A DNA stretch of 64,000 nucleotides from Candidatus Latescibacterota bacterium (GTDB lineage Bacteria > Latescibacterota > UBA2968 > GCA-2709665): NCBI GenBank assembly GCA_965208835.1, contig OZ242358.1, positions 4,736,001 to 4,800,000 on the forward strand, written 5' to 3'. The position numbers and the translations under genes are program-made. The notes beneath the pieces were generated by a model. It made no database searches and had not been told where the DNA came from. It worked only from the letters and a program-made list of their open reading frames with translations. Every line of letters starts with the position of its first letter. The first letter of the stretch is position 1. Of the stretch, positions 36,014 through 55,704 are shown one piece after another.

Positions 36014-36047
36014 GAAGCTGTCTCAAAACCCCAGCGGTCTTCGCGCG
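36014..36047. repeat. truncated left end of MITE family A
   Basis: GAAGCTGTCTCAAAACCCCAGCGGTCTTCGCGCG matches the left ends at 1816 and 36224. Confidence 0.7.
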
Positions 36048-36223: not shown

Positions 36224-36432
36224 GAAGCTGTCTTAAAATTCCCAGCGGTCTTCGCGCGGCTGCAAAAGCGTCGGTCTGCGTTGGTCAAATCCACCCGTCT
36301 TACAAGATCGAGGCTGCGCTTGCTCGCCTCTCATAGGCGAATTTGCCCGTCGGCGCTGCGCGCCCCTCGCGCCTCATAACCGACACATTTTCGCGCGCGC
36401 TCGGGACTCACCAGGAATCTTAAGACAACTTC
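36224..36432. mobile_element. MITE family A, copy 2 (209 bp)
   Basis: GAAGCTGTCTTAAAATT...AATCTTAAGACAACTTC with TAA duplication; interior homologous to copy 1 plus an extra segment. Confidence 0.85.
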
Positions 36433-36461
36433 TAAGGAAGGGTTGCCGGGAGGCTTTAGAT

Positions 36462-37193: not shown

Positions 37194-37319
37194 ATGGATA
37201 CCGCTATGTGTCCGTTGATACCTGAATCCGGAGCAGGGGCTTTGCCGGATGCGTTCCGTATCTTGTCCTGCCCGCCCTGTTTATCCAAGTTGTCGAATGA
37301 GCCGGGATATGGAATTTCC

Positions 37320-37348
37320 TTGACACTCTCGATGTGATTGTTTAAAGT
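37320..37348 (+). promoter_or_regulatory. sigma70 promoter of the trp/aro cluster
   Basis: TTGACA-N17-TAAAGT. Confidence 0.7.
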
Positions 37349-37426
37349 TAGATTGCTCCTGCCGGAGCGGTTTTTCTCGTCACCCGGTACGAAGTGGGCA
37401 GGACCGAGGACTGTGGAGGATCGAAC

Positions 37427-37534
37427 GTGACGGACCATGTCACAAACGGAATTTCCTGGCGTGGGTATTTTTATCGCTCCTACCGGTTGTATTACCGGGA
37501 GGCCCCGGAAGGTTGTGTCTGCCCACGCGAGTAA
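37427..37534 (+). CDS. aromatic amino acid attenuator leader peptide (35 aa)
   Basis: GGAGGA RBS (37415-37420), GTG start, MTDHVTNGISWRGYFYRSYRLYYREAPEGCVCPRE. Confidence 0.85.
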   Translation: MTDHVTNGISWRGYFYRSYRLYYREAPEGCVCPRE

Positions 37535-37559
37535 TCTGCTTGAAAAGTCGGAAACCGGG

Positions 37560-37589
37560 CCGTGGGCATCTGCTCACGGTTTTTTTTTT
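37560..37589 (+). terminator. attenuator terminator
   Basis: CCGTGGGC-ATCT-GCTCACGG followed by T10, 15 nt before trpE. Confidence 0.9.
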
Positions 37590-37604
37590 GATCTGTTGGA
37601 ACTC

Positions 37605-39086
37605 ATGAACACACCCGATCTGGAAACGTTGAAGACGCTGGCCAGGGGACGGGGAATTGTTCCGATCTCACGGGAAATCCTCGGAGATACGGAAACCCCG
37701 GTGTCCGCCTATTTGAAACTGCGGCCAAGGAGTCCGTACAGCTTTCTATTCGAGAGCGTGGAAGGAGGGGAAAAGATCGGTCGTTATTCCTTCCTGGGCG
37801 TGGAGCCGTTTCTCGCGTTTCGCTCGTGGAAATCACGGATAGAGGTGGAGGACCTGAAGCGGGGCGGCGTGAGGGTATACGAGGGATCGCCCATTGCCGA
37901 ACTCAGGCGTCTGCTGGGAAAATACCGTTCGGCCCAGTTGGAGGGACTGCCCCGGTTTACCGGCGGAGCCGTCGGCTACGTGGCTTACGACGCAATCCGG
38001 CTGGTCGAGAACATCCCCGATCGAACGCACGACGACCACGGCCTGCCGGACGTCGAGTTACTCTTCTACGATACGCTCCTTGGCTTCGACAACGTACGGC
38101 AGAAAATCCATTTGATATCCAACGTACATACCTCGGGAGATATCGAGCGGAATTACCGGGAGGCGGAAGCGCGAGTCGATGCGCTGGAAGCGGCATTGCG
38201 CGGTCCGGTTCCCGTGAACGGTGTTCCGTCAGGAACACCGCGCAACCGGACGGGAGAAATCAGGTCGAACACGGAGCGGTCTGTCTTTCTGGACAAGGTG
38301 CGTCGCTGCAAGGAATATATCGTGGCTGGCGATATCTTTCAGGTTGTACTCTCTCAGCGCTTCGAGACGGAGATTACCGTGGGGTCCCTGGACATTTACC
38401 GGGCGCTTCGCACGGTGAATCCGTCGCCATATATGTTTCATCTGGACTTCAAGGACGTGCAACTCGTCGGCGCATCGCCGGAGCTGCTGGTGCGCGTCGA
38501 AAATGGCGTCGTGCAGGTGCGCCCCATTGCGGGCACACGCTGGAGGGGGGCTACGGAAGAGGAGGACTCCGCTCTCGCGACGGACCTGCTGGAGGATGAG
38601 AAGGAACGCGCGGAGCATATCATGCTTCTGGATCTGGGCCGTAACGACGTGGGTCGCGTATCGCGTTACGATACAGTACGTGTAACAGAACAGATGGCGA
38701 TTGAGCGCTATTCTCACGTTATGCATATTGTCTCGAACGTTCGGGGGCATCTCAAAGACGGCGTGGATGCACTGGATGCGCTGTATGCCTGTTATCCGGC
38801 AGGTACGGTTTCCGGCGCGCCCAAGATCCGCGCGATGGAGATTATCGACGAGCTGGAGCCGACCCGCCGCGGACCGTACTCGGGGGCGGTGGGCTATATC
38901 GACTTTTCGGGCAATATGGATACGTGCATCGCCATACGTACGATGGTTCTGCAGGGACGGAAAGCGTACGTCCAGGCCGGCGGAGGGATCGTGTTCGATT
39001 CCATACCGGAAAACGAGCATCAGGAAACGGTTAATAAGGCGAAGGCGCTGTTCAGGGCGGTGGAACTGGCGGAGGGTGCGGAGTAG
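37605..39086 (+). CDS. trpE: anthranilate synthase component I
   Basis: DTETPVSAY, FLFESVEGG, GDIFQVVLSQRF, NPSPYM, KERAEH, PAGTVSGAPK. Confidence 0.96.
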   Translation: MNTPDLETLKTLARGRGIVPISREILGDTETPVSAYLKLRPRSPYSFLFESVEGGEKIGRYSFLGVEPFLAFRSWKSRIEVEDLKRGGVRVYEGSPIAELRRLLGKYRSAQLEGLPRFTGGAVGYVAYDAIRLVENIPDRTHDDHGLPDVELLFYDTLLGFDNVRQKIHLISNVHTSGDIERNYREAEARVDALEAALRGPVPVNGVPSGTPRNRTGEIRSNTERSVFLDKVRRCKEYIVAGDIFQVVLSQRFETEITVGSLDIYRALRTVNPSPYMFHLDFKDVQLVGASPELLVRVENGVVQVRPIAGTRWRGATEEEDSALATDLLEDEKERAEHIMLLDLGRNDVGRVSRYDTVRVTEQMAIERYSHVMHIVSNVRGHLKDGVDALDALYACYPAGTVSGAPKIRAMEIIDELEPTRRGPYSGAVGYIDFSGNMDTCIAIRTMVLQGRKAYVQAGGGIVFDSIPENEHQETVNKAKALFRAVELAEGAE

Positions 39087-39199: not shown

Positions 39200-39763
39200 A
39201 TGATCCTGGTAATCGACAATTACGACTCCTTCACGTACAATCTGGTTCAGTATCTGGGTGAGTTGGGCGCCCGGATGGAAGTGTTCAGGAACGATCAGAT
39301 CGAACTGGACCGGATTGACGCAACCCAACCCGAGAAGGTGGTGATTTCGCCCGGTCCCTGCACGCCGAACGAGGCGGGAATCTCCGTGGATCTGGTCCGG
39401 CGGTTTACCGGCCGGATTCCGATGCTGGGTGTCTGTCTCGGGCACCAGTGCATCGGACAGGCCTTTGGCGGCAAGGTCGTGAGGGCCCCGGCAATTCTCC
39501 ACGGGAAGGTGTCTGAGATTCATCACGACGGACGTACGATTTTCAGTGAAATGACTCAGCCCTTCATCGCAACGCGTTACCATTCGCTGATTGTCGAGCG
39601 GGAGAGCCTGCCGGACTGCCTTGAGGTGTCCGCGCAGACACACGACGGGATAATCATGGGTCTGCGGCACAGGAAATATCCGGTTGAGGGCGTGCAGTTT
39701 CATCCCGAATCCATATTGACGGCCGAGGGCAAAGTGCTGTTGAGGAATTTTCTTGAAGGCTGA
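39200..39763 (+). CDS. trpG: anthranilate synthase component II (glutamine amidotransferase)
   Basis: [32 protein letters not shown]. Confidence 0.95.
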
Positions 39764-39768
39764 ATTAG

Positions 39769-39914
39769 CAGCCCGTTGAAAAAGCCCATCCGGACTACGG
39801 CCGGCCGTTGCGGTCGAAATACGGCGTTGTGCTCCCTCGCCGAATCCCAGGATGGGACTCGGTCGCGCGCCTTGTCTTCGGCCTCGCCTGCATAGCGACT
39901 TTATCAACGGACTG
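39769..39914 (+). mobile_element. MITE family B, copy 1 (146 bp)
   Basis: TIR CAGCCCGTTGAAAAAG / CTTTATCAACGGACTG; 4-bp TSD TTAG. Confidence 0.88.
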
Positions 39915-39967
39915 TTAGGGGACCGTACGCCGGTCCCGTTCTCTGCTTGCATGTCGGGGAGATGGCT

Positions 39968-40981
39968 ATGGCGATACAGGATGCGATTGCGAAACTGATT
40001 GAGGGGCAGGACCTGCCACGTGACCGGATGATCGGGACGATGAACCAGATCATGTCGGGAGAGGCCACGGACGCACAGATCGGCGCGTTCCTGGTCGCTT
40101 TGCGGGTCAAGGGCGAGACAGTCGAGGAGATCGCCGGCGCCGCGGAAGTGATGAGGGACAAGGCGACGCGGGTTGTAACACGGCACCCCACGGTAGTCGA
40201 TACATGCGGAACCGGAGGCGACGGATCGGGAACTTTCAATATCTCCACGGCGGCGGCGTTCGTGGTGGCCGGCGCGGGACTGTGTGTCGCCAAACATGGC
40301 AACCGCGCCGCATCCAGCCTCTGTGGAAGCGCCGACGTTCTGAAGGAGCTGGGGGTGAACATCGAAGCGTCACCCGGGACGATGGGGCGGTGTCTGGATG
40401 AGGCAGGCATCGGATTTCTGTTCGCTCCGGCATTGCACGGCGCCATGAAATATGCGATCGGACCCAGACGCGAGCTCGGTGCGCGCACGATTTTCAACGC
40501 TCTGGGGCCGCTGACCAATCCGGCAGGCGCAACCCGACACCTGATCGGGGTCTACAGTCGATCTCTGACCGACACGCTGGCGGAGGTCTTGCGAACATTG
40601 GCGTCGGAACGTGCGTTTGTGGTACACGGGCTGGACGGACTGGATGAGATCAGCACGACCGGGCCAACGCAGGTGAGCGAATTGAAGGACGGGACCGTGT
40701 CCACGTATGAGATCACGCCCGAGGACCTGGGAATCGCGAGGGCATCGGCAGACGATCTGGCCGGGGGCAACGCAGAGACCAATGCGGCGATCCTTCGCAG
40801 GGTGCTGAATGGCGAGCCCGGGCCACGGCTTGACATCGTTCTTTTGAACGCGGCAGCCGCAATCGTAGCAGGCGGTGCGGCGGGTGATCTGCCGGCGGCC
40901 ATGGAACTGGCCAGGGAAACCGTGGATTCCGGGCGGGCGGTGGATAAGCTGGAAGAGCTCAAGCTGGTTTCGGCGGGATAA
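39968..40981 (+). CDS. trpD: anthranilate phosphoribosyltransferase
   Basis: DTCGTGGDG..TFNIST, KHGNR, GPLTNPA, DGLDE. Confidence 0.96.
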   Translation: MAIQDAIAKLIEGQDLPRDRMIGTMNQIMSGEATDAQIGAFLVALRVKGETVEEIAGAAEVMRDKATRVVTRHPTVVDTCGTGGDGSGTFNISTAAAFVVAGAGLCVAKHGNRAASSLCGSADVLKELGVNIEASPGTMGRCLDEAGIGFLFAPALHGAMKYAIGPRRELGARTIFNALGPLTNPAGATRHLIGVYSRSLTDTLAEVLRTLASERAFVVHGLDGLDEISTTGPTQVSELKDGTVSTYEITPEDLGIARASADDLAGGNAETNAAILRRVLNGEPGPRLDIVLLNAAAAIVAGGAAGDLPAAMELARETVDSGRAVDKLEELKLVSAG

Positions 40982-40982
40982 G

Positions 40983-41774
40983 ATGGCAACAATCCTGGAT
41001 GAGATCATCGCATACAAGCGACGCGTTGTGGCCGAGGCAAAACAACGGGTTTCGCACGAAGATATAAGGAAACAAGCGGATCGAGTTCGGAAACCGTGCT
41101 CCTTGATGGAGAGCCTGACCGCCGGGGAGGATATCGCGCTCATTACGGAAATAAAAAAGGCATCTCCGTCAAAAGGGGTGATCCGGGAGAATTTCGATCC
41201 GGTTGAAATCGGCCGGGCATACGAGAAAAACGGCGCTGCGGGAATTTCCGTGCTTACGGACGAGAAGTATTTTCAGGGCTCCATCGCCAGTCTGAAGGCC
41301 GTAAGCGAAGCCGTACAAATTCCGGTGCTCCGGAAAGACTTCGTGATTGACCCTTATCAGATTCACGAAGCCGGAACGATCGGTGCGTCGGCGGTTCTGC
41401 TCATTGTCTCGGCGCTCTCGCAACGTGAATTGGCAGAGATGCTCACAGTCTGCAGGGAGACACGATTGGACGCCCTCGTGGAAGTGCACACGAGGGAGGA
41501 AGCGAGCAGGGCTCTGGATGCCGGCGCAGCTCTTGTCGGGGTTAATAACCGCGACCTCAAGACGTTCGAAACCGACTTGCGAACCACGTTCGACCTGATT
41601 GAATATCTACCTGACGAACTCGTCGTGGTAAGCGAGAGCGGTATCGAGACCAGGGACCATGTCGTCCGGTTAAGGGATGCCGGCGTGAATGCGGTGCTGG
41701 TCGGGGAACATCTGATGCGCCATCCCGACGTCGGTCGGAAGCTGAAGGCGCTGCTGGGTGCGGAAGGCGGTTGA
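40983..41774 (+). CDS. trpC: indole-3-glycerol phosphate synthase
   Basis: EIKKASPSKG, SVLTD, LRKDF, GVNNRDL, SESGI. Confidence 0.96.
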   Translation: MATILDEIIAYKRRVVAEAKQRVSHEDIRKQADRVRKPCSLMESLTAGEDIALITEIKKASPSKGVIRENFDPVEIGRAYEKNGAAGISVLTDEKYFQGSIASLKAVSEAVQIPVLRKDFVIDPYQIHEAGTIGASAVLLIVSALSQRELAEMLTVCRETRLDALVEVHTREEASRALDAGAALVGVNNRDLKTFETDLRTTFDLIEYLPDELVVVSESGIETRDHVVRLRDAGVNAVLVGEHLMRHPDVGRKLKALLGAEGG

Positions 41775-41782
41775 CTCGACTC

Positions 41783-42403
41783 ATGGTTTGTGTGAAAATT
41801 TGCGGAATTACGAATCCGGAAGACGCGCTTTTCGCGGCCGCACAGGGTGTGGACGCGCTGGGGTTCATCTTCTATGAGCCCAGCCCGCGTTACGTGGATC
41901 CGGAATGCGTGAGCGAGATCGTGTCGCAATTGCCGCCATTCGTGACGCCGGTAGGGGTCTTCGTGAACAAGGCCAGGGAGGAGATTCTGGAAATCGCGCG
42001 TTCGACCGGAATTCAGGCGGTACAGTTGCACGGCGACGAGACGCCGGCCGACTGTCTGGGATATCCGTTACCGGTTGTCCGGGCATTGCGGGTGAGCGAC
42101 GGATTCGACCCTGCTTCCCTGAACGACTTTCCGGTTGACACGTTTCTGCTGGATACGGCCAAAAAGGGATGGTACGGCGGCACTGGAGAGACCTTTGACT
42201 GGCGGGTTGCAAGGGCGGCGACCGCACACGGGCGGATCATCCTCTCCGGGGGAATGGATGCGTCAAACGTAGCGGATGCGGTCCGAATGGTGAATCCGTA
42301 CGCGGTAGACTGCGGCAGCGGCGTCGAGGCCGCGCCCGGCCGGAAGGACCACGACAGAATCAGGGGGTTTTTGCGGGCGGTCCGCTCCGTAGCAGTCCGT
42401 TGA
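41783..42403 (+). CDS. trpF: phosphoribosylanthranilate isomerase
   Basis: VKICGIT, SPR, QLHGDE, GGTGETFDW, SGVE..PG.KD; last codons and stop supplied by a MITE. Confidence 0.95.
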   Translation: MVCVKICGITNPEDALFAAAQGVDALGFIFYEPSPRYVDPECVSEIVSQLPPFVTPVGVFVNKAREEILEIARSTGIQAVQLHGDETPADCLGYPLPVVRALRVSDGFDPASLNDFPVDTFLLDTAKKGWYGGTGETFDWRVARAATAHGRIILSGGMDASNVADAVRMVNPYAVDCGSGVEAAPGRKDHDRIRGFLRAVRSVAVR

Positions 42404-42552
42404 TAAAGTCGCTCTGCAGGCGAGGCCGAGCCATTGTGGCCGAAGACAAGGCGCGCGACCGAGTCCCATCCAGCGATTCGGCGAGGGAGCGCAACGCAGT
42501 ATTTCGACCGCAAGGGCCGGCCGTAGCCCGGATGGGCTTTTTCAACGGGCTG
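42393..42552 (-). mobile_element. MITE family B, copy 2 (160 bp, inverted)
   Basis: Same TIRs, TSD GTAG; inserted into the trpF 3' end. Confidence 0.88.
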
Positions 42553-42610
42553 GTAGACCACAGTGCGCGTGTCTGAACCAATATCGAGAAATGAACCGGA
42601 GTTCAAAACA

Positions 42611-43873
42611 GTGGACATCCAGAAAGATCTGAATTTCCGTGGTTACGTATTTCAGCAAACAGACCCCGACGGTTTCAGGGCTCGGCTCACGCAGGGGCCG
42701 ATCACACTCTATTCGGGGTTCGACCCCACGGCAGACAGCTTGCACGTTGGCAGCCTGATACCCATTCTGGGACTGAGGCGGTTTCAGCTGGCCGGACATC
42801 ATGCGATCGGGCTGATCGGGGGAGGTACGGGTTTGATCGGCGATCCGAGCGGCAGTAAGGAAGAACGTCCGTTGAATCCGCCCGAATTGATCGCATCATA
42901 TACCGGGAAACTGACAGACCAGCTGGCCAGGTTCCTGGATTTTGAGACGAAGACCAATCCCGCCCGGGTTGTCAGCAATCTGGGTTGGCTTTCGGAACTG
43001 AAGGCGATTGACTTCCTGAGGGACACGGGCAAGCACTTCTCCATGGGTTATATGCTGGCGAAAGAGTCCGTGGCTTCCCGGCTGGAGACCGGAATCTCGT
43101 TCACCGAATTCAGCTATATGGTCATTCAGGCCTATGATTTCATGGAGTTGTTTCGGGCACACGGATGTGAGCTCCAGATTGGCGGGAGCGATCAATGGGG
43201 TAACATAACGGCGGGAATCGAGCTGATCCGGCGCCGGCTCGGCGGGCAGGTCTATGGCCTGACGTTTCCGCTGCTGCTGAATGCCGACGGGTCCAAGTTC
43301 GGCAAGACGGCATCCGGTAACGTCTGGCTCGACCCGGGAAGGACAACCCCCTACCAGTTTTACCAGCATTGGATCAATACGGACGACCGTGACGTGGTGA
43401 AGTTCCTGAAGCTGTTTACCTTTCTACCCGAGAATGAAATCATCAATCTGGAAACGGAAGTGAACGAACACCCCGAAAAGCGAGAGGCGCAGCGGGTACT
43501 GGCAGAGGAAGTCACCACTTTCGTGCATGACAGATCCGCCACGGTGAGGGCGCGGCGGATTTCGGACGCGTTGTTCTATGGTAACCTGAAAGACCTGAGT
43601 ACACGAGAGATCGAAGAAGGGTTCCGCGACGTGCCGTCTCAGGCGCTCAATGGCGTTTCAGGTGTGGGTCTGGTGGATCTGCTGGTAGACTGCGGTATTT
43701 CATCTTCCATGCGCCAGGCGCGGGAAGATATCCGCTCCGGCGCGATCCATATCAATGGCCGTCGTTGCACCGATACGGGCATGATGCTTGAACCACCGGA
43801 CAGAATCGCAGGGAGATACCTGGTCGTGCGCCGGGGCAAACGCCGCTACTTTCTGGTGCGCTGGAACCTCTGA
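42611..43873 (+). CDS. tyrS: tyrosine--tRNA ligase
   Basis: YSGFDPTADSLHVGS, QIGGSDQWGNI, KFGKT, S4-like C-terminus; start uncertain (42563 or 42611). Confidence 0.96.
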   Translation: MDIQKDLNFRGYVFQQTDPDGFRARLTQGPITLYSGFDPTADSLHVGSLIPILGLRRFQLAGHHAIGLIGGGTGLIGDPSGSKEERPLNPPELIASYTGKLTDQLARFLDFETKTNPARVVSNLGWLSELKAIDFLRDTGKHFSMGYMLAKESVASRLETGISFTEFSYMVIQAYDFMELFRAHGCELQIGGSDQWGNITAGIELIRRRLGGQVYGLTFPLLLNADGSKFGKTASGNVWLDPGRTTPYQFYQHWINTDDRDVVKFLKLFTFLPENEIINLETEVNEHPEKREAQRVLAEEVTTFVHDRSATVRARRISDALFYGNLKDLSTREIEEGFRDVPSQALNGVSGVGLVDLLVDCGISSSMRQAREDIRSGAIHINGRRCTDTGMMLEPPDRIAGRYLVVRRGKRRYFLVRWNL

Positions 43874-43949
43874 CGGGCGGTTGCCGGTCCACCGGCATGT
43901 ATCGGAGCGCAAACCAGGATATGAATAATCGAAACCCAGCATGATAAAC

Positions 43950-44142
43950 CTCAATCCGAAAAAGACAGCAACGCGGCGACGCGATAAAACCCTCCGAAAC
44001 GGGGCAATATCGACCTATAGAATGACGTTTTTTCCCTTCACGCCCAGTGACCTGGTGTATCCTGGTAATCCGCCGTTTAATCGCTTTTATTTACAAGCAC
44101 ATATTCGAATTAACGTCCCCGAAGACTTACGAATCAAGGTTA
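43950..44142 (+). promoter_or_regulatory. conserved ~190-nt non-coding leader element, copy 2
   Basis: Homologous to 15582-15776 (minus strand); ends 22 nt before the ATG at 44165. Confidence 0.7.
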
Positions 44143-44164
44143 ACAACAGGAGAGGATTCCTTCC

Positions 44165-45142
44165 ATGAAAGCACCCTGGATTACCTATCGGCCGGAATTG
44201 AAAGTACTTGATTGTACGATTCGAGACGGCGGATTGATGAACGATCACCAGTTCACCGATGATTTCGTGAAGGCGGTCTATGAAACCTGCGTCGCCGCCG
44301 GCGTCGACTATATGGAAATTGGGTACCGGAACTCCAAGGAGATTTTCCCCAAAGACCAATTCGGAGCTTTCCGGCACAGCGACGAAGAGGACATCCGTAA
44401 GATAACGGGCGACCACGACCCTGAAACCACCGGCCTGAAGCTCGCCATTATGGCGGATGCGGGCAAGAGCGACTGGGCGGAAGACATCCTGCCGGCCAGC
44501 GAGAGCGTGGTCAGCATGGTACGCGTGGCCTGTTATGTCGAGCAGATTCCCGAGACCGTTGAAATGCTCTGCGACGCCCACGAGAAAGGGTATGAAACCA
44601 GTTGCAACATTATGGCCATTTCAACCGTACAGGAGGTTGAGATCGACCAGGCGCTGGAGGTGCTCATCCAGACGCCGGTCGGCACAATATGTGTCGTCGA
44701 CAGCTTCGGGGCATTGTATCGCGAGCAGGTGGACATGCTCATCCGAAAATATATGGATGCTGTAAGCAAAACGGGAAAGGAAGTCGGCATTCACGCTCAC
44801 AACAACCAGCAACTGGCATTCGCCAATACCATCGAAGCGCTGATTCTCGGCGCAAACCGCGTTGACGCCACGGTGGACGGGCTTGGCCGCGGCGCCGGGA
44901 ATTGCCCTCTGGAACTGCTGCTGGGCTTCCTGCGCAATCCGAAGTTCAGGATTCGACCCGTCTACAAGCTGCTGGAAGACCACTTCGTCAAGTTGCGTGA
45001 GGAATTGACGTGGGGGGCCCTTGTACCGTACAACATTACAGGGCAGCACAACCAGCATCCCCGCTCGGCGATGGCGCTTCTGGACGGGGACGAACGCAAC
45101 CGCTATCTGGCATTCTACGATCAGGTGATGAGGGATATATAG
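44165..45142 (+). CDS. DRE-TIM (HMGL-like) aldolase-family protein
   Basis: [29 protein letters not shown]. Confidence 0.85.
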
Positions 45143-46347
45143 TGCTCAACAGAGATGAAACCGCAAGGGCATGGCCTGACTCCGGGGGGCACTTCGGACC
45201 CTACGGCGGGCGCTATGTGCCGGAAACGTTGATGCCGTTACTGGAAGACCTGGAGGCGGCCTACCGCGACGCAAAGGACCGTCCGGATTTTCATGAAGAA
45301 CTGGACGGATATCTCCGGGAATTCGTAGGAAGGCCGACGTCACTCTATTTCGCACAGCGACTGACCCAAGAACTGGGCGGAGCCAGGATCTATCTGAAGC
45401 GGGAGGACCTCGCCCACACCGGCGCGCACAAAATAAACAACACGATGGGGCAGATTCTGCTTGCCAGACGCATGGGCAAGACGCGGATCATCGCTGAAAC
45501 GGGGGCGGGGCAGCACGGCGTGGCCACGGCAACCGTCGCGGCGATGTTCGGCCTGGAATGCGAGATCTACATGGGCACGGAAGACATGGACCGGCAGGCG
45601 TTGAATGTGTTTCGAATGCGGCTCCTCGGTGCGAAAGTGACCGGCGTGGACTCGGGAAGCAGGACGCTCAAAGACGCGATCAACGAGGCAATCCGGGACT
45701 GGGTGACGAATGTGGAGGATACGTTTTATATCTTTGGATCCGTCCTGGGGCCTCACCCGTATCCGATGATCGTACGCGACTTTCAGCGGGTGATCGGGGT
45801 GGAGACGCGCGCGCAGATCCTGCAGGCCGAAGGTCGGTTGCCGGACCGTCTGATCGCATGCGTGGGCGGCGGCAGCAATTCGATGGGGCTGTTTCATGCG
45901 TTTCTGGACGACACGGACGTGCGGATGGTCGGCGTCGAAGCCGGAGGCCATGGCATTGCCTCGGGCGACCACGCTGCGCGGTTTCAGGGAGGAGATCTGG
46001 GCGTACTGCACGGGGCCAGGATTTACCTCCTTCAGGACGAGGACGGTCAGATTGCACTGACCCATTCGGTATCGGCGGGCCTGGACTATTCCGGCGTGGG
46101 CCCCGAACACTGCCTTCTGCGGGATGAGGGTCGGATCGAGTATGCGTATGCAACTGACGACGAGGCCCTGAAGGGGTTCCGGCTGTTGAGTCGCACGGAG
46201 GGCATCATTCCCGCACTGGAAAGCGCGCATGCGATCGCGTACGTGTCGAAAGCGGCGCCCGAAATGGACAGGAATGCCGTGATCGTGGCGAATCTGTCCG
46301 GACGCGGCGACAAAGATGTACAGCAGGCGGCGAAGTACCTGGACTAA
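45142..46347 (+). CDS. trpB: tryptophan synthase beta chain
   Basis: [39 protein letters not shown]; GTG overlaps the upstream TAG. Confidence 0.97.
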
Positions 46348-46400
46348 ACGGTAGTACACGTTTCGTTATTGAACCGGAATCGAGGATTGGAGTTGCCCGG

Positions 46401-47213
46401 ATGACAAGGATCGGTAAACGGTTCGAAGCGTTGAGGAGAGCGGGAAAGACCGGATTTGTCGCCTACATAACGGCCGGAGATCCGGATCTGGAAACCACCC
46501 GACGACTGGTGCCGGAGCTGGAGCGGCGCGGGGTGGATATCCTCGAGTTGGGCGTACCGTTCTCCGATCCGCTGGCGGACGGGCCCGAGATCCAGGCGGC
46601 CTCGCAGCGGGCGCTGAGGCATGGGGTGTCGCTGGGCGACGTTCTGGACCTGGTGGCGGACCTGCGGCTGGAGTCCGAGATACCTATCGTTCTGTTTACG
46701 TATTTCAATCCGATGCACCGTTTCGGTCTCCAACGGCTCGTCGACAGAGCCGCCGATGCGGGGGTGGACGGCATTCTGGCGCTGGATCTTCCGCCGGAAG
46801 AAGCGGGCGAGTACAAGGGTCTGATGGAAGAGCGGGGATTGGATACGATTTTTCTGATCGCGCCTACCAGCGGTGAGGATCGCATTCGGCGAATCGCGTC
46901 TTGCACCAGCGGATTTGTATATTACGTGTCGCGCACGGGCGTGACCGGGGAACGGGACAGACTGGAGGAAACGCTTGGAGACAGGGTAGCGGCCATCCGG
47001 AGACATACCTCGCAACCCGTTGCGGTTGGATTCGGAATTTCGACGCCGGAACAGTCCGGAGAGGTTGCAGGCTATGCGGATGCGGTCGTCGTCGGCAGCG
47101 CCATCGTGCGTCGAATTGCCCAACGGCAGACCGACCCGGACCTCGTTGTTCACATCGGGGCTTTTGTCGAAGAATTGGTGCAACCGTTGAAGGGAGCATT
47201 CGATGGATCTTGA
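46401..47213 (+). CDS. trpA: tryptophan synthase alpha chain
   Basis: AGDP, ELGVPFSDPLADGP.IQ, GVTG, VGFGI, VGSA. Confidence 0.97.
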   Translation: MTRIGKRFEALRRAGKTGFVAYITAGDPDLETTRRLVPELERRGVDILELGVPFSDPLADGPEIQAASQRALRHGVSLGDVLDLVADLRLESEIPIVLFTYFNPMHRFGLQRLVDRAADAGVDGILALDLPPEEAGEYKGLMEERGLDTIFLIAPTSGEDRIRRIASCTSGFVYYVSRTGVTGERDRLEETLGDRVAAIRRHTSQPVAVGFGISTPEQSGEVAGYADAVVVGSAIVRRIAQRQTDPDLVVHIGAFVEELVQPLKGAFDGS

Positions 47214-47472
47214 AGACTGGCGTAAGGAAATCGACGTGCTGGACCGGGAACTGCTGACGCTTCTGAATCGACGGGCCGAATGCGCCATTGAAATTGGCAG
47301 GATCAAACAGGCAATCGAGCAACCGATCTTCGTGCCGGAACGGGAGATGTCGATCCTGAACCGAATCCTTGAGTTGAATGAGGGGCCCCTGGACGCCGAA
47401 GCCGTGCGACGGATCTTTCAACAGATCATCGATGAGTCCAGGCGCCTCATGCAGAAGAATCAGGGAAGTTAA
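47203..47472 (+). CDS. monofunctional AroQ-class chorismate mutase
   Basis: LEDWRKEID.LD..LL.LLNRRA...IG.IK...PERE. Confidence 0.9.
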   Translation: MDLEDWRKEIDVLDRELLTLLNRRAECAIEIGRIKQAIEQPIFVPEREMSILNRILELNEGPLDAEAVRRIFQQIIDESRRLMQKNQGS

Positions 47473-47564
47473 ACGGGTGCGAACCCTTCTGAACCTTAGC
47501 TCGAGATTGGTCGGGACGTTTCGTCACGTTTGAAGACCGAGATTTGTCACGGAGCCCGCAGCGC

Positions 47565-48593
47565 ATGGCATTCACGAAAAACATGAAGATACCCACGCCG
47601 GAAGCCGTTCTGGAGAAGATGCCGCTTCCGAAGAATCTGAAAGAAATAAAGGAGCAGCGGGATGCGGAAATCGGCGACATCTTTTCGCGCAGGAGCCATA
47701 AGTTTCTCCTTGTGATCGGCCCCTGCTCCGCACACAATGAAGACGCCGTATGTGAATACGTCTCGCGGCTGGCGAAACTGCAGGAGGCCGTCCGGGAAAC
47801 GCTGATTCTGGTGCCCCGGCTCTATACCAACAAACCCCGGACGACCGGCGAGGGATACAAGGGTATGGGACATCAGCCGGACCCGCGAAAGGCGCCGGAC
47901 ATGTCCGAAGGCATTTACGCGGTCCGTCAGATGCACATCCGGGCGGTGCGGGAATCCCACCTGACTGCGGCCGACGAAATGCTCTATCCTGGCAATCTAC
48001 CCTACGTCGATGACCTGCTGAGCTATATAGCCGTGGGTGCCCGGTCGGTAGAAAACCAACAACACCGATTGACCTGCAGCGGCGTTGACGTACCCGTTGG
48101 AATGAAAAACCCGACGGGAGGAGATCTTTCGGTTATGCTGAACGCGATTCATGCCTCCCAGATCCCGCACGTCTTCATCTATAACGGCTGGGAGGTACGC
48201 ACCGACGGCAATCCAATGACGCACGCCGTACTCCGCGGCGCCGTGGACGTAACCGGGCGCAGCATGCCGAACTACCATTTCGAGGACCTCATGTACGCGG
48301 CGGAACTGTATCGGCAGCGGCCGCTTGCCAACGCCGCGATCGTCGTGGATACGAATCACAATAACTCGGGCAAGCAGTTCAGTGAACAGCCGCGGATCGG
48401 GTTGGAAGTGATACGCAGCCGGCAGAATTCGGCGTTCCTGAACGACATGATCCGCGGATTGATGGTGGAGAGTTATCTGGTTGAGGGAGCGCAAGACGTC
48501 AATGACGGCGTGTACGGCAAATCCATTACCGATCCATGCCTGGGGTGGGAAGATACCGAGGCGTTCGTAAAGGAACTGGCCGAGGGGATATGA
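47565..48593 (+). CDS. DAHP synthase, class I-alpha (AroF/G/H type)
   Basis: IGPCS, KPRT..GYKG, GARS, GMKN, H.NS.K, ESYL..G.Q, SITDPC. Confidence 0.93.
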   Translation: MAFTKNMKIPTPEAVLEKMPLPKNLKEIKEQRDAEIGDIFSRRSHKFLLVIGPCSAHNEDAVCEYVSRLAKLQEAVRETLILVPRLYTNKPRTTGEGYKGMGHQPDPRKAPDMSEGIYAVRQMHIRAVRESHLTAADEMLYPGNLPYVDDLLSYIAVGARSVENQQHRLTCSGVDVPVGMKNPTGGDLSVMLNAIHASQIPHVFIYNGWEVRTDGNPMTHAVLRGAVDVTGRSMPNYHFEDLMYAAELYRQRPLANAAIVVDTNHNNSGKQFSEQPRIGLEVIRSRQNSAFLNDMIRGLMVESYLVEGAQDVNDGVYGKSITDPCLGWEDTEAFVKELAEGI

Positions 48594-48671
48594 TTGCGAA
48601 CGGGATCGGAAGACAGGAACGGACCCGAACGACCCGCGGGCGCTTTCGCCTCCGCCTCCAAGGATGACCGC

Positions 48672-49784
48672 ATGGCGAACGACCCTCCGTTTGCGCGTGA
48701 GACGATTGCAATAGTTGGTGTCGGGCTGATTGGCGGATCTCTTGGTGTGGCGCTCAAGGGACTGGGCATCGGACGACGTATCGTTGGCATCAGCAGGCAG
48801 GAGACCCTGGATGCAGCCGTCGGGCTGGATGTTATCGATGCGGGCTATCGCTATGAGGACCTCGAAACCGGGATTCGGGATGCGGCGCTGGTTTTCCTGT
48901 GCACTCCCATCGTACGTATTCTGGATCTGCTGCCTGAGGTGCTCGGAGCGGCGCGGCAGGATACGGTCGTGACCGATGTAGGCAGCACCAAACACGCGAT
49001 TGTTTCCGCGGCGGCGGCCCATCATCGGGATGACGTGCACTTTGTGGGCGGGCACCCGATGGCCGGATCCGAACATCGAGGGGTGGGCGCGGCGGATCCC
49101 TTCCTGTTTCAGAATGCGATCTATGTCTTGACGCCGTCGCCGGACACGCCCGGTTTCGTGGTCGAAAAGCTCGCTCGCCTTGTAAGGGCGTTCGGGGCCA
49201 GGCCGATGAGGATGACGCCTCAGGAACACGACAGGGCGGCGGCGGCGGTAAGTCACCTGCCGCAGATGATGGCCACGAGCCTGGTGTCCATGATTGGAAG
49301 GATGGCGGAAGACGACGGATTGCCGATTCGAATGGCCGCGGGGGGGTTTCGGGACCTGACCCGCATCGCTTCCAGCCCTTTTGGGATGTGGCGAGATATC
49401 TGCCGTACAAACGCGACGCCGATCCGCGAGATGATCGATCTGTATATTGAGTCGCTTTCGGCAATTCGCGGGAATGTGGACCACGACCGCCTGGAGCAGA
49501 CATTCACCTATGCGAATCGGGTACGGGGGCAGATCCCGAAGGACTCCAAGGGATTCCTGCATCCACTGCACGAAATTCTCCTCCTGGCGGAGGACAGGCC
49601 GGGTGTGATCGCCCACGTCGCCAGGAAGCTTGCCGGTGAGAGCATTAATATAAACGACATTGAGGTGCTGAATGTGCGGGAGGGAGAAGGCGGCACCATT
49701 CGAATGGGGTTCGATTCCCGTCCCTGCGCGGAACGGGCCGTTGACGTATTGGCGAAGGCGGGCTACAGCGTGAGATTGAGATAG
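48672..49784 (+). CDS. tyrA: prephenate dehydrogenase with C-terminal ACT domain
   Basis: GVGLIGGS, DVGSTK, GGHPMAGSE, SHLP, GFRDLTRIA, DRPGVIA. Confidence 0.93.
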   Translation: MANDPPFARETIAIVGVGLIGGSLGVALKGLGIGRRIVGISRQETLDAAVGLDVIDAGYRYEDLETGIRDAALVFLCTPIVRILDLLPEVLGAARQDTVVTDVGSTKHAIVSAAAAHHRDDVHFVGGHPMAGSEHRGVGAADPFLFQNAIYVLTPSPDTPGFVVEKLARLVRAFGARPMRMTPQEHDRAAAAVSHLPQMMATSLVSMIGRMAEDDGLPIRMAAGGFRDLTRIASSPFGMWRDICRTNATPIREMIDLYIESLSAIRGNVDHDRLEQTFTYANRVRGQIPKDSKGFLHPLHEILLLAEDRPGVIAHVARKLAGESININDIEVLNVREGEGGTIRMGFDSRPCAERAVDVLAKAGYSVRLR

Positions 49785-49846
49785 AGATTGAACCGGAAAG
49801 ATCGCTTTCCCTCCATTGGCGACCGCATTATAAAGAAGGCCTGGTT

Positions 49847-51145
49847 TTGGAACTCACGAAGTCGGGAATCTTCGAAGATAACATCAAACCATCGCCCGGG
49901 CTCAAGGGGGTTTCCGACCTCCCGGGCGATGTCAGTATATCGATCATCGCCCTTGCGCTCTCGTCCGCGGCGAATGGAATTACCAGGATTCGCAGGTGCT
50001 CGCGAAGCCGTGAAGTCCACCGTACTTGCGAGTTGCTGTCGGAAGTCGGGATTGCGGTAGCCTGGGACGGTGAGACCGCAACGGTAACCGGCGGCCAATT
50101 CCGGGCGCCGGAAGGCGTGCTGAACGTGGACGGGTCCCTTGTTCTGTTTTCCTGTCTGGCGGGATTGCTGTCGAATGCCCCTTTTGTAACGAGACTTTCC
50201 GGAATTCACGCCGATGCCGGCGTCAACCGGGTCTCTGAAGCGCTGCGACCGCTGGACGCCCACCTGGACCTTTCGATTAAGGACGGGATATCGGCCCGTA
50301 TCGGGGGGAAGAGGTTAAAGCCTGGATCCTGCCGCGTCGGACGTCCCGACCTGGCGGTGAAGTGCGGGGTGCTGATGGCCGGGTTGGGTGTGGACGGTCC
50401 GGTTGAGCTGCTGCAGGACACCGGAGGAGATGACGATCTGGAAGTGTTGCTGCGGGCGGCCGGATGCCGGCTGAAAAAGGGCCGGATCAGGGGCGCCGGA
50501 GGTTACCGGTTGTCGCTGGAAGGACCCGTACGGCTCCGCGCCGTTACCCATGAGTTGCCGGGTAGTTCGGACGCCGGTCTGTTTCTTGTGCTGGCCGCGG
50601 CGATGTTGGAACAGTCTGATTTGACGGTAACCCATTTCGGAACGGACTCGAGAAGCCGAAGGATCATGGACGTGCTGCGCCGGATGAACGTAGCCCTGGA
50701 TGTGGAGCCATTCCGGACGGATTCCGGTTTCCCCGCTCGAAGCGTCCGGATCATGGGGTCCGACTTGCGTGGCATAAAGATCGCCGGCGCGAACGCGCGG
50801 TTCTTGCGGGACGTGCTCCCGCTCCTGGCGGTCGCCGGCGCCGTTTCCCGGGGTGAGACCATAATCCGGGATGCGGAGGCGTTGAGGGAGGGTCCGGTCG
50901 ACTGTATCTCGGTTTTGGTAGAATGCCTCAGGAAGTTACAGATTGAAGTCGGAGAGATGCCGGACGGACTGGTTGTGAAGGGAGGGCAACCGCAGGGCGC
51001 CGAACTGGATGCCGGCGGTGACGCCCGCGTGTCTATGGCGCTCACGCTGGCGGCGCTGGCCAGCGAAGGGGAAACACTCGTCAGGAACCCCGGGCCCGTG
51101 GATCGGGCGATGATGGATCGGCTGGCGACGGTACTGGAAGCGTAA
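49847..51145 (+). CDS. EPSP synthase (AroA)-like protein, active site degenerate
   Basis: AroA length, motif order and position after tyrA, but key motifs altered (see findings). Confidence 0.75.
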   Translation: MELTKSGIFEDNIKPSPGLKGVSDLPGDVSISIIALALSSAANGITRIRRCSRSREVHRTCELLSEVGIAVAWDGETATVTGGQFRAPEGVLNVDGSLVLFSCLAGLLSNAPFVTRLSGIHADAGVNRVSEALRPLDAHLDLSIKDGISARIGGKRLKPGSCRVGRPDLAVKCGVLMAGLGVDGPVELLQDTGGDDDLEVLLRAAGCRLKKGRIRGAGGYRLSLEGPVRLRAVTHELPGSSDAGLFLVLAAAMLEQSDLTVTHFGTDSRSRRIMDVLRRMNVALDVEPFRTDSGFPARSVRIMGSDLRGIKIAGANARFLRDVLPLLAVAGAVSRGETIIRDAEALREGPVDCISVLVECLRKLQIEVGEMPDGLVVKGGQPQGAELDAGGDARVSMALTLAALASEGETLVRNPGPVDRAMMDRLATVLEA

Positions 51146-51156
51146 TCATTCAGGTA

Positions 51157-51194
51157 CCCGCGCTGTCTGCAGCGTCCGCTGCAGACAGCGCGGG
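51157..51194. repeat. perfect 18-bp inverted repeat
   Basis: CCCGCGCTGTCTGCAGCG-TC-CGCTGCAGACAGCGCGGG; no U-tract. Confidence 0.8.
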
Positions 51195-51220
51195 ACAATC
51201 TTCGGTACGAGGAGAGCCTT

Positions 51221-51361
51221 ATGAGACTGGTTGTCAGGTTATTCCTTCTGGCGTTGCTGGTGTTCCTGGGAGGCGTGGTCTTCATCAAGTACACATACAA
51301 CTGTTCGTGGAAAGAGAGTTTCGCCATCGCCGACCAGTTTGTGTCGGACCTGACCCGTTAA
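51221..51361 (+). CDS. small single-TM protein (46 aa)
   Basis: GAGGAG RBS; MRLVVRLFLLALLVFLGGVVFIKYTYNCSWKESFAIADQFVSDLTR; below the ORF-track cutoff. Confidence 0.65.
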   Translation: MRLVVRLFLLALLVFLGGVVFIKYTYNCSWKESFAIADQFVSDLTR

Positions 51362-51507
51362 CAGTCCGTTGATAAAGTCGCTCTGCAGGCGAGGCCGAAG
51401 ACAAGGCGCGCGATCGAGTCGACTCGGAGGATTCGTCGAGGGAGCGCAACGCGGTATTTCGACCGCAAGGGCCGGCCGTAGCCAGGATGGGCTTTTTCGA
51501 CGGGCTG
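51362..51507 (-). mobile_element. MITE family B, copy 3 (146 bp, inverted)
   Basis: Same TIRs, TSD TTAA. Confidence 0.88.
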
Positions 51508-51558
51508 TTAAGGAACTCCTGCCGGCAGGACGCAACAGCAGGGTGAGGGGAGTCTGTT

Positions 51559-52425
51559 TTGGGTATTGTCTCAACCACGCGATTGCTGGGGGTGATAGGC
51601 GATCCCATCGCCCATTCGTTATCTCCGGACATGCACAATGCGGCCATTGACGATCTCGAAATAGACTATTGTTACGTCGCTTTTCACGTATTGCCGGATG
51701 GGATTGAATCGGCGCTCGACGGTATGCGCGCTTTGCAGATTCGGGGATTGAACGTTACCCTTCCGCACAAGTCGGCGGTGATGGCGCACCTGGACCGGAT
51801 TTCGAAAGAAGCACTGGCCGTGGGCGCGGTGAACACGATTTCTCTCAAAGATGGCGAACTTGTCGGGCAGAATACCGACGTGTACGGGTTGGCCACCGCT
51901 CTGGAGCGCACCGCTGGCCTCGGCGTGTTGCCCGAGCATTGCGTGATTCTCGGTGCGGGAGGCGTCGCGCGGGCGGCCGTCTACGCACTGGCGACGCGGA
52001 AAGAGGTGAAGCGGGTGAGCATTCTCAATCGAACTGTCGGCCGGGCGCAGGCGCTTGCGCGGGATATGCAACGGATAACGGGAAAATCGATCGACGCGGG
52101 TGATCTGACGAAGGGCACTCAGATGAGCCGGTTCTCGGATGCCGGCCTTGTCGTGAACGGAACGTCGTTGGGGATGGTTCCGGACGTGCAGCGGACGCCC
52201 CTCGCGGATACACGCGCGGTCCACCCGCAACTGGTGCTCTACGACACGGTTTTCAATCCGCTGGATACGCTCCTGATGCGTCAGTTCCGATCCGCCGGAG
52301 CGCCGGCGTATGGAGGCCTGGATATGCTTGTGCACCAGGGCGCGCGTTCGTTTGCCATCTGGACGGGTATCGAGCCGCCCGTCGACGTGATGAAGCAGGC
52401 GATAATCGGCCGGTTTCGGGCGTAG
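51559..52425 (+). CDS. aroE: shikimate dehydrogenase
   Basis: GDPIAHSLSP.MH, NVTLPHK, GAVNT, NTD, GAGG, GLDMLVHQG. Confidence 0.94.
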   Translation: MGIVSTTRLLGVIGDPIAHSLSPDMHNAAIDDLEIDYCYVAFHVLPDGIESALDGMRALQIRGLNVTLPHKSAVMAHLDRISKEALAVGAVNTISLKDGELVGQNTDVYGLATALERTAGLGVLPEHCVILGAGGVARAAVYALATRKEVKRVSILNRTVGRAQALARDMQRITGKSIDAGDLTKGTQMSRFSDAGLVVNGTSLGMVPDVQRTPLADTRAVHPQLVLYDTVFNPLDTLLMRQFRSAGAPAYGGLDMLVHQGARSFAIWTGIEPPVDVMKQAIIGRFRA

Positions 52426-52427
52426 CG

Positions 52428-53171
52428 GTGGCGAGTTCCGACCCTCAGGAACGCGATGCCAGGCGGACCTTCGTTCGTCAGATGTTCGACGGTATTGCCG
52501 GCACGTACGATCTGCTGAACCACCTGTTGAGCGCCGGCGTGGACATTCTCTGGCGGCGCTGGACAGTCGACGCACTGGAATTGAAGGCGGACTGGCGGAT
52601 CCTGGACCTTGCGACAGGAACGGCCGATCTGGGTCTCGAAGCCGCTGCGCGCGACCCGGGGGTGCGGGTTGTGGGTGCGGACCTTTCCCTGCCGATGCTT
52701 CGGCTTGGAAACAAGAAGCAGAAGAAGGGAGCCGGCCGCATGTTTCTGCTTTGCGGAGACGCACAGCGGCTGCCGTTTCCCGATGCGCGGTTTCACGCCG
52801 TGACCATTGGCTTCGGAGTACGGAATTTTTCGGACCTGAACGGCGGGCTTCGCGAGGTCTTGCGCGTCCTGCGCCCGGGAGGCCGGCTGGCGGTTCTGGA
52901 ATTTTCCCGGCCCAGAGCCTTTCTGTTGAGCAGGGTTTACCTCATTTACTTCAAATACATCCTTCCCGGAATCGGTCGGCTGGTTTCACGGAACCCTCTG
53001 GCGTACCGGTATCTCTATGAGTCCGTGATGGGATTTCCGGAAGGAGAAGCATTTCGAATGCGTTTGACGCAGACGGGGTTTCAGGATGCGGTGGAACGCC
53101 GGTTGACCCTCGGCATTGCCACGCTCTACCTGGCGTCAAAACCTTCGAATCGGGGAGACGGAAGAGGGTAG
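52428..53171 (+). CDS. ubiE: UbiE/MenG quinone C-methyltransferase
   Basis: MFD.IA..YDLLNHLLS.G.D..WR, LDLATGTAD, FGVRN, YLYES. Confidence 0.9.
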   Translation: MASSDPQERDARRTFVRQMFDGIAGTYDLLNHLLSAGVDILWRRWTVDALELKADWRILDLATGTADLGLEAAARDPGVRVVGADLSLPMLRLGNKKQKKGAGRMFLLCGDAQRLPFPDARFHAVTIGFGVRNFSDLNGGLREVLRVLRPGGRLAVLEFSRPRAFLLSRVYLIYFKYILPGIGRLVSRNPLAYRYLYESVMGFPEGEAFRMRLTQTGFQDAVERRLTLGIATLYLASKPSNRGDGRG

Positions 53172-53367
53172 AAGAAATGCGGGTAGACGGGAGAGGGTAG
53201 ACGGTAGACCAATAGCGGGTAGACGGGAGCCGGTAGACGGTAGAAGAAATACTTGCCCGGTATGTCATTCCTCATTGCCTTCGGCACGAACAGAATCCTC
53301 ACGAGGCAGGCAATCTCTCCCCTCTCCCGTCTTACGTCTAACCGCCTTTTGCTGACGGCTGATAGCT
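53152..53367. repeat. degenerate GGTAGAC(GG) short-repeat cluster with inverted partner
   Basis: Several GGTAGACGG units in 53167-53244; AGACGGGAGAGGG (53185-53197) is complementary to 53320-53332. Confidence 0.65.
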
Positions 53368-53391
53368 TTTTGGGGCGCGAGGTCCTGCTAT

Positions 53392-55095: not shown

Positions 55096-55655
55096 GTCGG
55101 GCCGGGCATTCTTCTCCGCTGCAGGGAAGACAGATTTTCCTGGCCGGTTTCATGGCAACGGGAAAGAGCAAGATCGGCTTACTTCTCGCGCGGCGTCTGG
55201 AGAGGATATTTGTGGATACGGACGAATTGATCGTGGAGACCGCCGGGAAGTCGATCCCTCGGATCTTCGCGGAAGACGGCGAGACCGCGTTCCGTCGCAT
55301 CGAACGCGGTTGCGTGAAGCGGGCGGCGGGAATGGCAGATGCTGTGATTGCGCTGGGTGGCGGCGCCGTGACACAGGAGGACAACTGGGACACGATTCGC
55401 AAATCCGGCGTCTGCCTGTGTCTTCGGGCATCGGCGGAGACGATCTTCACGCGCCTGCGCAGGACAGACGGGGAACGGCCGCTGATGGCCGGATTGAACG
55501 ACGAAGACCGGATGGCGAAGATCCGGTCGATGCTTGCCGACCGGGCGCCGTTTTACGACCGGGCGGACGCATTCGTGGAGTCGACCGAGTACCGCACGCC
55601 CGACGAGACCGTTCAACTGGCAGTAACGGCATTAAAGGGCGTTGTGTTGAAATAA
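55092..55655 (+). CDS. aroK: shikimate kinase
   Basis: GFMATGKS, DTD, GETAFR..E, LGGG, RPL. Confidence 0.94.
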   Translation: MSRAGHSSPLQGRQIFLAGFMATGKSKIGLLLARRLERIFVDTDELIVETAGKSIPRIFAEDGETAFRRIERGCVKRAAGMADAVIALGGGAVTQEDNWDTIRKSGVCLCLRASAETIFTRLRRTDGERPLMAGLNDEDRMAKIRSMLADRAPFYDRADAFVESTEYRTPDETVQLAVTALKGVVLK

Positions 55656-55704
55656 GGGCGTTTGAAGGCCGGTGTCCTAATTATCGAAAGGCGTACTGAG
55701 GCGT

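Follow-up and report, generated by a model that had tools for sequence, protein, structure and literature searches.

A 64,000-nucleotide stretch of the genome of a Candidatus Latescibacterota bacterium (contig OZ242358.1, positions 4,736,001 to 4,800,000, referred to here as the window, with positions counted from its first letter) carries, directly upstream of trpE, a short leader with the anatomy of a ribosome-mediated transcription attenuator, and this leader stands at the head of an 18-gene aromatic cluster. Leader-peptide attenuation is a textbook mechanism that is mostly known from Proteobacteria and Actinobacteria, with leaders for single amino acids. The leader described here is this known mechanism in an unusual mixed-codon form and does not belong to the curated Rfam Trp_leader family. 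The mechanism appears to have been retained throughout one order of an uncultured lineage that is associated with sponges, and the predicted sensor mixes the codons of all three aromatic amino acids, with the weight on tyrosine. The features of the locus are as follows.

37320..37348, plus strand: sigma-70-type promoter, TTGACA (37320-37325), a spacer of 17 nucleotides (nt) and TAAAGT (37343-37348), matching 10 of 12 consensus positions
37394..37401, plus strand: segment 0 (GTGGGCAG), an additional segment of the 5' untranslated region, complementary to segment 2 and paired with it in the minimum free energy (MFE) fold
37414..37419, plus strand: Shine-Dalgarno sequence GGAGGA, 7 nt ahead of the GTG start at 37427
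37427..37534, plus strand: leader open reading frame (ORF) of 35 codons with a GTG start, its frame conserved in 42 genomes
37459..37467, plus strand: segment 1 (GCGTGGGTA), pairs with segment 2 (duplex of -19.9 kcal/mol)
37483..37498, plus strand: inner hairpin CCGG-N8-CCGG, formed from two Arg codons and present in the MFE fold
37520..37528, plus strand: segment 2 (TGCCCACGC), over the last leader codons, pairs with segment 1 or segment 3
37557..37589, plus strand: intrinsic terminator with an 11-bp stem (37557-37582), loop ATCT and T10 (37580-37589), identified by terminator scan and covariation
37561..37568, plus strand: segment 3 (CGTGGGCA), the 5' arm of the terminator
37572..37579, plus strand: segment 4 (GCTCACGG), pairs with segment 3 and is followed directly by T10
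37605..39086, plus strand: trpE (anthranilate synthase I; PF00425, PF04715), first gene after the attenuator, its start set by alignment with relatives
39200..56814, plus strand: remainder of the cluster, trpG to aroB, by gene annotation; the genes beyond 56814 lie on the opposite strand
44165..45142: HMGL-like (aldolase/synthase-type) gene between tyrS and trpB
47203..47472, plus strand: type II chorismate mutase (CM)

An earlier note on this DNA had listed the promoter, the Shine-Dalgarno sequence, the 35-codon ORF, the four segments and the T10 run, and a reading of the sequence finds each of them where that note placed it, with the adjustments that segment 4 occupies 37572-37579 and that the ATG of trpE is at 37605 rather than 37606. 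Across positions 36000-55900 the TTGACA-N17-TAAAGT element is the top sigma-70 promoter match (score 10 of 12), and the terminator at 37557-37589 is the sole strong one on the plus strand. Segment 2 begins at codon 32 of the leader and ends 3 nt ahead of its stop codon. Codons 11-23 of the leader (WRGYFYRSYRLYY) comprise five Tyr, one Trp and one Phe codon, so that seven of the 13 are aromatic (W11, Y14, F15, Y16, Y19, Y22 and Y23), and Arg codons are found at positions 12, 17, 20, 24 and 34. The reading frame of trpE stays open upstream as far as an ATG at 37437 (549 residues) and thus spans both the leader and the terminator. This extension is not conserved, as the open frames of relatives range from 493 to 551 residues, and a gene caller could therefore start trpE too early and hide the leader. 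This is a practical matter for annotation, since gene callers may absorb the leader into trpE.

The genes behind the leader are arranged in the order trpEGDCF-tyrS-HMGL-like-trpBA-CM-DAHPS-tyrA-aroA-aroE-ubiE-argS-aroK-aroB, where DAHPS is DAHP synthase, tyrA is a prephenate dehydrogenase with an ACT domain, the ubiE-like gene encodes a methyltransferase, and tyrS was identified by TIGR00234 (387 bits). Gene annotation thus bears out the cluster of trp genes, tyrS, CM, tyrA and shikimate genes that had been proposed from the translations, and the scan of 36000-55900 revealed neither a strong plus-strand terminator nor a second strong promoter within it. The gene order is equal in all five examined relatives of the order, which represent both of its families, and the aromatic cluster likely forms a single long transcription unit. 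The HMGL-like gene was also seen in two examined relatives, one from the genus of the window and one from a large genus of the second family, and is absent from three examined relatives of three other genera. The gene pheA lies about 44 kb before the start of the window, and neither a Phe-run leader nor a terminator was seen in its upstream spacer of about 130 nt.

Conservation of the leader

Thirty trpE loci were obtained from 40 relatives, and in 27 of them an ORF of 31-35 codons that includes Trp lies upstream and is followed by a terminator core, with 28-39 nt between the leader stop and the conserved core. The other three loci are L016 and L017, which were dropped by a motif filter and recovered as L160 and L161, and L020, which is truncated where its contig ends. 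The 27 upstream sequences with the leader were used to build a covariance model, termed R1, which has one match in the genome under study. When 151 genomes sampled from the phylum were searched, R1 matched all 18 of family f1, 29 of the 30 of family f2 and none of 102 from other families; 47 of the 48 other genomes of the order have one match each, and the match adjoins trpE upstream in every case examined. The sole exception in f2 is an 82%-complete genome in which the contig with trpE begins 147 nt ahead of the gene. Because of this distribution the leader is judged to be a single-copy sequence family that is confined to one order and bound to trpE. The element itself is real and conserved, and it very probably has a function.

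The elements for transcription and translation of the leader are retained as well. The same promoter boxes are visible in those relatives within the genus whose 330-nt upstream stretch extends far enough, while the form TTGACA-N17-TATCTT was seen in the second family, and the Shine-Dalgarno sequence and GTG start are found at equal spacing in 12 of 13 genus relatives. Among 42 leaders from 42 genomes in 10 genera, a set that is also used below for codon composition, the length ranges from 25 to 35 codons and both the frame and the position of the stop relative to the terminator are conserved.

A promoter followed by a very small ORF and a terminator could also represent an independent small gene, for a small RNA or a small protein, that merely lies beside trpE. 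A second promoter-like box was observed between the leader terminator and trpE at L015, L018-L022, L150-L158 and L160-L161. It consists of TTGACA or a variant with one mismatch, reads CTTGACAAAT in several genera, where a GAAAAA stretch and a -10 element resembling TATTA come after it, and is seen in most other genera but is absent from the genus of the window. Such a box would provide the operons of those genera with an attenuator-independent promoter, and it makes the leader a self-contained unit there, as an independent gene would be. In the genome under study, however, the T run ends 15 nt before the ATG of trpE with no promoter between them, the leader is found once per genome and, wherever this was examined, directly before trpE, and its codon make-up matches the content of the operon. 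An independent gene is accordingly a very improbable explanation.

Alternative pairings and the predicted switch

In the alignment of the terminator 96.6% of cells are paired, two pairs are changed on both sides, and none of 500 shuffles reaches the observed score. The core of the antiterminator, UGCCCA:UGGGCA, is paired in 95% of cells (27 sequences) and is nearly invariant, which is expected because the strand must pair with two partners. The pairing of segments 2 and 3 (2:3, with the other pairings named likewise) extends into the terminator loop, where an A-U pair in one genus is swapped for U-A in the second family, and this swap speaks for the 2:3 pairing specifically. Segment 1 is not homologous between the families, since it is found at codons 10-14 in this genus versus codons 1-8 in the second family, but a large majority of the 27 sequences have, just before or at the aromatic run, a segment complementary to segment 2. 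In three sequences of the second family the automatic search chose other partners for segment 2. The location of segment 2 at the end of the ORF and the mutual exclusion of 1:2 and 2:3 are thus supported by conservation and by one compensatory swap. Within the leader itself, the conserved Tyr-Tyr pair lies mostly within the loop of the CCGG-N8-CCGG hairpin, and the Tyr run of other genera has comparable stems on either side, as judged by reading rather than by a formal pair count.

When the ORF region was subjected to 1000 dinucleotide shuffles, the 1:2 duplex was equalled in 26 and the 1:2 and 2:3 duplexes together in 12. The pairings in the single sequence are only modestly above chance, and the weight of the evidence therefore rests on conservation in relatives. 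In constrained folds, 1:2 is the MFE structure once segment 2 has newly emerged, 2:3 is better than 1:2 by 3 kcal/mol after segment 3 emerges, and in the full leader the terminator states are better than the antiterminator by 7.5-10.6 kcal/mol. In these models the energetics are the kinetic layout of a classical attenuator. A stall model in which only the RNA 3' of the stalled ribosome folds gives the following probabilities of 2:3, P(2:3), at the aromatic codons: 0.44 at W11, 0.34 at Y14, 0.33 at F15, 0.94 at Y16, 0.69 at Y19 and 0.95 at both Y22 and Y23. From codon 29 onward P(2:3) is 0. Segment 0, whose exact sequence is found only in this genome and its nearest relative (L002), is for that reason treated as a local addition that is probably not part of the conserved switch, and it possibly deepens basal termination.

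The reading that we favor, and consider reasonably probable, is that of a classical ribosome-mediated attenuator before trpE that serves the aromatic amino acids as an OR gate, with most weight on tyrosine. When charged tRNA is ample, the ribosome would reach the leader stop and cover segment 2, or would depart and leave segment 2 to be held by segment 1 or segment 0. With segment 2 occupied, segments 3 and 4 would pair and RNA polymerase would terminate at 37580-37589. A ribosome that stalls between about codon 7 and codon 28, a predicted range that includes all seven aromatic codons, would hide or separate segment 1 and leave segment 2 free. Free segment 2 would then capture segment 3 as it emerges, the terminator would not form and the 18-gene operon would be transcribed. 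Effective stalls would be those at Tyr, Trp and probably Phe codons, and because Tyr codons outnumber Trp by 5:1 and the operon includes tyrS, tyrA, CM and the common pathway together with the trp genes, the OR gate is predicted to be weighted to tyrosine. The earlier note had proposed a classical four-segment leader-peptide attenuator heading the aromatic cluster, and its anatomy is both present and conserved across the order.

Leader codons and the synthetase gene of the operon

Each of the 42 leaders contains 1-2 Trp, 2-6 Tyr (median 5), 1-5 Phe and 3-9 Arg codons. When one leader per genus is compared with the proteome of the genome under study, Tyr is the most enriched residue (4.7x), followed by Cys (3.4x), Trp (3.3x), Phe (2.3x) and Arg (1.8x), where the enrichment of Cys is accounted for by the TGC codon within segment 2. 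The mixed, Tyr-dominated codon content that had been noticed in one sequence is therefore conserved across the order and is not an accident of that sequence; the alignment of related trpE leaders for W/Y/F codons and covarying stems, which the earlier note had suggested, finds the codons conserved and the terminator covarying. The order of residues varies strongly between genera while the composition is retained. Among 14 members of the genus, synonymous changes are found in six columns of codons 12-24, and amino acid replacements in this stretch are confined to Tyr-to-Phe changes at codons 16 and 19, aside from codon 21, which varies between W, L, R and Y. Y14, F15, Y22 and Y23 are invariant in these 14 sequences, the Trp positions are unstable (W11 is missing from two of them and W21 from five), and the flanking codons 2-10 and 26-30 are free to vary. 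The aromatic codon content is thus conserved under codon-level purifying selection, and selection acting through translation on the identity of these codons would be expected to give this pattern. A genome-wide scan for aromatic-rich windows of 14 residues was set aside as non-specific, since it returned 508 windows.

An alternative is that the leader encodes a nascent arrest peptide like TnaC, which would sense a free ligand in the ribosome tunnel rather than charged tRNA. The strong conservation of the 13-residue core at the amino acid level within the genus speaks for such a peptide, but between genera it is the composition alone and not the order of residues that is kept, and the classical model explains the alternative hairpins and the intrinsic terminator without any ligand. 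There is little to recommend an arrest peptide in this case.

An argument that the Tyr codons of the predicted attenuator would act as sensors comes from the sister order, which was sampled as a neighboring family of the same class (15 genomes). A trpE match at E <= 1e-100 was obtained in five of these genomes. The other ten (G076, G079, G081, G083, G084, G086, G096, G097, G098 and G101), for which a completeness of 88-97% is stated, gave no TrpE match at E <= 1e-100 and may have lost the trp operon or may merely be divergent. Upstream of trpE a leader ORF and terminator are present in all five positive genomes, with 2-4 Trp codons and 0-2 Tyr codons; in all but one of these leaders Trp codons are adjacent (WW or WWW). 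The operon of the sister order is trpEGDC-trpS-CM-tyrA-aroA-aroE-argS-aroK-aroB. It lacks trpF, tyrS, trpBA, DAHP synthase and ubiE, and its trpS encodes a tryptophanyl-tRNA synthetase of 327 residues (TIGR00233, 371 bits). In the same five genomes tyrS stands alone, after a terminator-like hairpin and T run located 30-200 nt upstream of the gene (L173-L177), and in all but one of them tyrS is also preceded by a short ORF that includes 1-4 Tyr codons. One of these ORFs holds YYRYYR, a motif that is also found in two genera of the present order. These upstream regions are candidate Tyr-codon attenuators. At two of the loci CCGGGGG near the end of the ORF was seen by eye to match the 5' arm of the terminator.

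The converse arrangement is found in the genome of the window, where trpS lies elsewhere (on the minus strand of contig C1 at about 368209-368560, beyond the window). It is preceded by its own promoter-like box and by a leader ORF of 25 codons that includes a WWW run. Some 40 nt after the stop of that leader a hairpin-like GC-rich repeat is followed by T8, as seen by eye in the unfolded sequence, and the trpS leader is a candidate for a classical Trp attenuator. As trpS is found with Trp runs and tyrS with Tyr runs, the dominant leader codon follows the synthetase gene of its unit. The proposal that the Tyr weighting of the leader fits an operon with tyrS is thereby strengthened, since the sister order has trpS together with a Trp-run leader. 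The comparison amounts to a natural experiment in which a swap of trpS for tyrS accompanies a swap of Trp runs for Tyr runs in the leader, and it is unusually direct comparative evidence for leader codons that are tuned to operon content. It covers two clades, with six operons from the present order (this genome and five relatives) versus five from the sister order, and for that reason the link between codon and synthetase is a lead and not a statistic. Even so, it is the strongest argument that the Tyr codons would be sensors rather than bystanders.

The bystander view holds that the leader is a classical attenuator for Trp only, in which the one or two Trp codons do the sensing and those for Tyr and Phe persist through ancestry or because the RNA structure needs them. 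None of the 42 leaders lacks a Trp codon, the first genes of the operon are trp genes, and the leaders of the sister order and of distant metagenome-assembled genomes (MAGs) are Trp runs (WWW, YWW, YWYW), so that the ancestor was probably a Trp leader. A precedent exists in the aroR leader before aroF of Corynebacterium glutamicum (Neshat et al., 2014), in which a Tyr codon within Phe-Tyr-Phe confers no response to Tyr and the leader responded to Phe, according to the passages of PMC11802643 that treat it. A Trp-only sensor, however, fits less well with unstable Trp positions beside an invariant Y14, F15, Y22 and Y23 and a Y16 and Y19 that are replaced by Phe alone, or with Tyr rather than Trp as the top enriched residue. 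Moreover, the same genome has a WWW run before trpS, where Trp sensing is expected, and the composition of the leader switches with the synthetase gene of the operon. Sensing of Trp alone is hence rather unlikely, although it is the most serious of the alternatives.

Several points weigh against the Tyr-weighted OR gate that we favor. This leader contains a single Trp codon, and the precedent of aroR, where by the same portion of PMC11802643 the supply of Tyr was without effect on an F-Y-F leader, applies here as well. The conservation of the peptide is partly forced by RNA pairing, as the W-R-G codons overlap segment 1, V-C-P overlaps segment 2 and the inner hairpin is built from CGG Arg codons. 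By itself the 2:3 duplex does not exceed the shuffles, 387 of the 1000 having equalled it. In the model in which only downstream RNA folds, P(2:3) is 0.35 at codon 20 and 0.02 at codon 21, and equilibrium models are therefore rough. If pairing across the stalled ribosome is allowed, the pairing of segments 0 and 2 dominates (P 0.6-0.86) and P(2:3) is only 0.05-0.43 for stalls at codons 7-25; the equilibrium stall models are judged not decisive. Finally, in the genera with a second promoter-like box 3' of the attenuator, the attenuator cannot be the only control.

How such a leader might have originated is suggested by the two clades. A tentative proposal is that it is a merger of two older sensors, the Trp-run trpE leader and the Tyr-codon tyrS leader that are seen in the sister order, whose codon content co-evolved with the synthetase gene. 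In this scheme tyrS would have taken the place of trpS in the operon, trpS would have departed with its own WWW leader, and the leader of the operon would have become a chimera of a W/F part and an R-YY-R part. The result would be an OR gate with four inputs (Tyr, Trp, Phe and Arg) over 18 genes that include tyrS and argS.

Arginine may be a minor fourth input. The attenuator of the E. coli trp operon is partly relieved by starvation for Arg. In the present leaders Arg is enriched, as given above, and argS is inside the operon in both orders, but two of the CGG codons build the inner hairpin and the CGT codon falls in segment 1, and a role of Arg and argS as an extra input is speculative.

Relation to known attenuators

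The trp operon of E. coli, with its leader trpL, is the Yanofsky model of attenuation. Like trpL, the leader described here has a short ORF with control codons, segments 1 to 4 with the alternatives 1:2, 2:3 and 3:4, segment 2 where the ORF ends, an intrinsic terminator immediately ahead of trpE and an Arg codon after the Trp codon. The two have no relationship by sequence or Rfam. In addition, trpL has 14 codons with two adjacent Trp, in contrast to 35 codons with one Trp, five Tyr and one Phe, and the unit behind the leader here has 18 genes, among them tyrS, argS and those of the entire common pathway. Multivalent attenuators are also known in E. coli, where thrL has codons for Thr and Ile and ilvL for Ile, Val and Leu. 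As in these, one leader contains the codons of several amino acids that share an operon, with an OR-type response that is predicted in the present case, although thrL and ilvL sense aliphatic or hydroxyl amino acids. Codons for more than one amino acid are found in the control region of the leader, and this composition is conserved.

The aromatic supraoperon of Bacillus subtilis is controlled by TRAP, which senses by binding to GAG/UAG repeats. It resembles the operon described here in that trp genes are located inside a long unit with aro and tyr genes and a terminator/antiterminator switch precedes trpE, and differs in its sensor, as there is a leader ORF here and no TRAP gene. TRAP-mediated attenuation was rejected because MtrB (PF02081) was not found in the genome under study (97.8% complete), while the B. 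subtilis control was positive. Searches with Rfam gave no family, whether at the gathering score across the window or locally with E as high as 10, and a T-box riboswitch, Trp_leader (RF00513) and the other curated leader families were rejected since none of them matched even at that lenient threshold.

Synthetase genes are known to be controlled by leader peptides, as in the pheST genes of E. coli. The trpS and leuS genes of Streptomyces are likewise under leader-peptide attenuators, according to the excerpt of PMC1262725 that deals with them. In these cases a synthetase gene lies behind codons for its own amino acid, which fits tyrS here and trpS or tyrS in relatives; the difference is that the synthetase gene here is one of 18 behind a mixed leader. 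Attenuation in the E. coli trp operon is summarized in the relevant part of PMC11802643, and the closest aromatic precedent, aroR of C. glutamicum, is described in the same part. Like the present leader, aroR has mixed aromatic codons before an operon, in its case that of DAHP synthase. It comes from another phylum and precedes a small operon, and it has three codons with no Trp, compared with seven codons of three kinds before a trp/tyr/aro supraoperon. No account of a leader with Trp, Tyr and Phe codons, or of attenuation in this lineage, emerged from a literature search, and the broad comparative attenuator survey of Lopatovskaya et al. (2010), cited in PMC4833913, may hold related predictions.

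More distant leaders were sought with a TrpE search of wider genome contigs, which yielded 80 related loci, all with at most 60% TrpE identity. Eight of these passed a crude screen for an upstream small ORF and a terminator-like hairpin, and by eye four of the eight (L031, L061, L065 and L110) look to be of the Trp type, with terminators. The motifs in the trpE leaders of distant MAGs include FWYW in one labeled Latescibacterota, YWYW in Acidobacteriota, and WWW in Dehalococcoidia and in Thermodesulfobacteriota.

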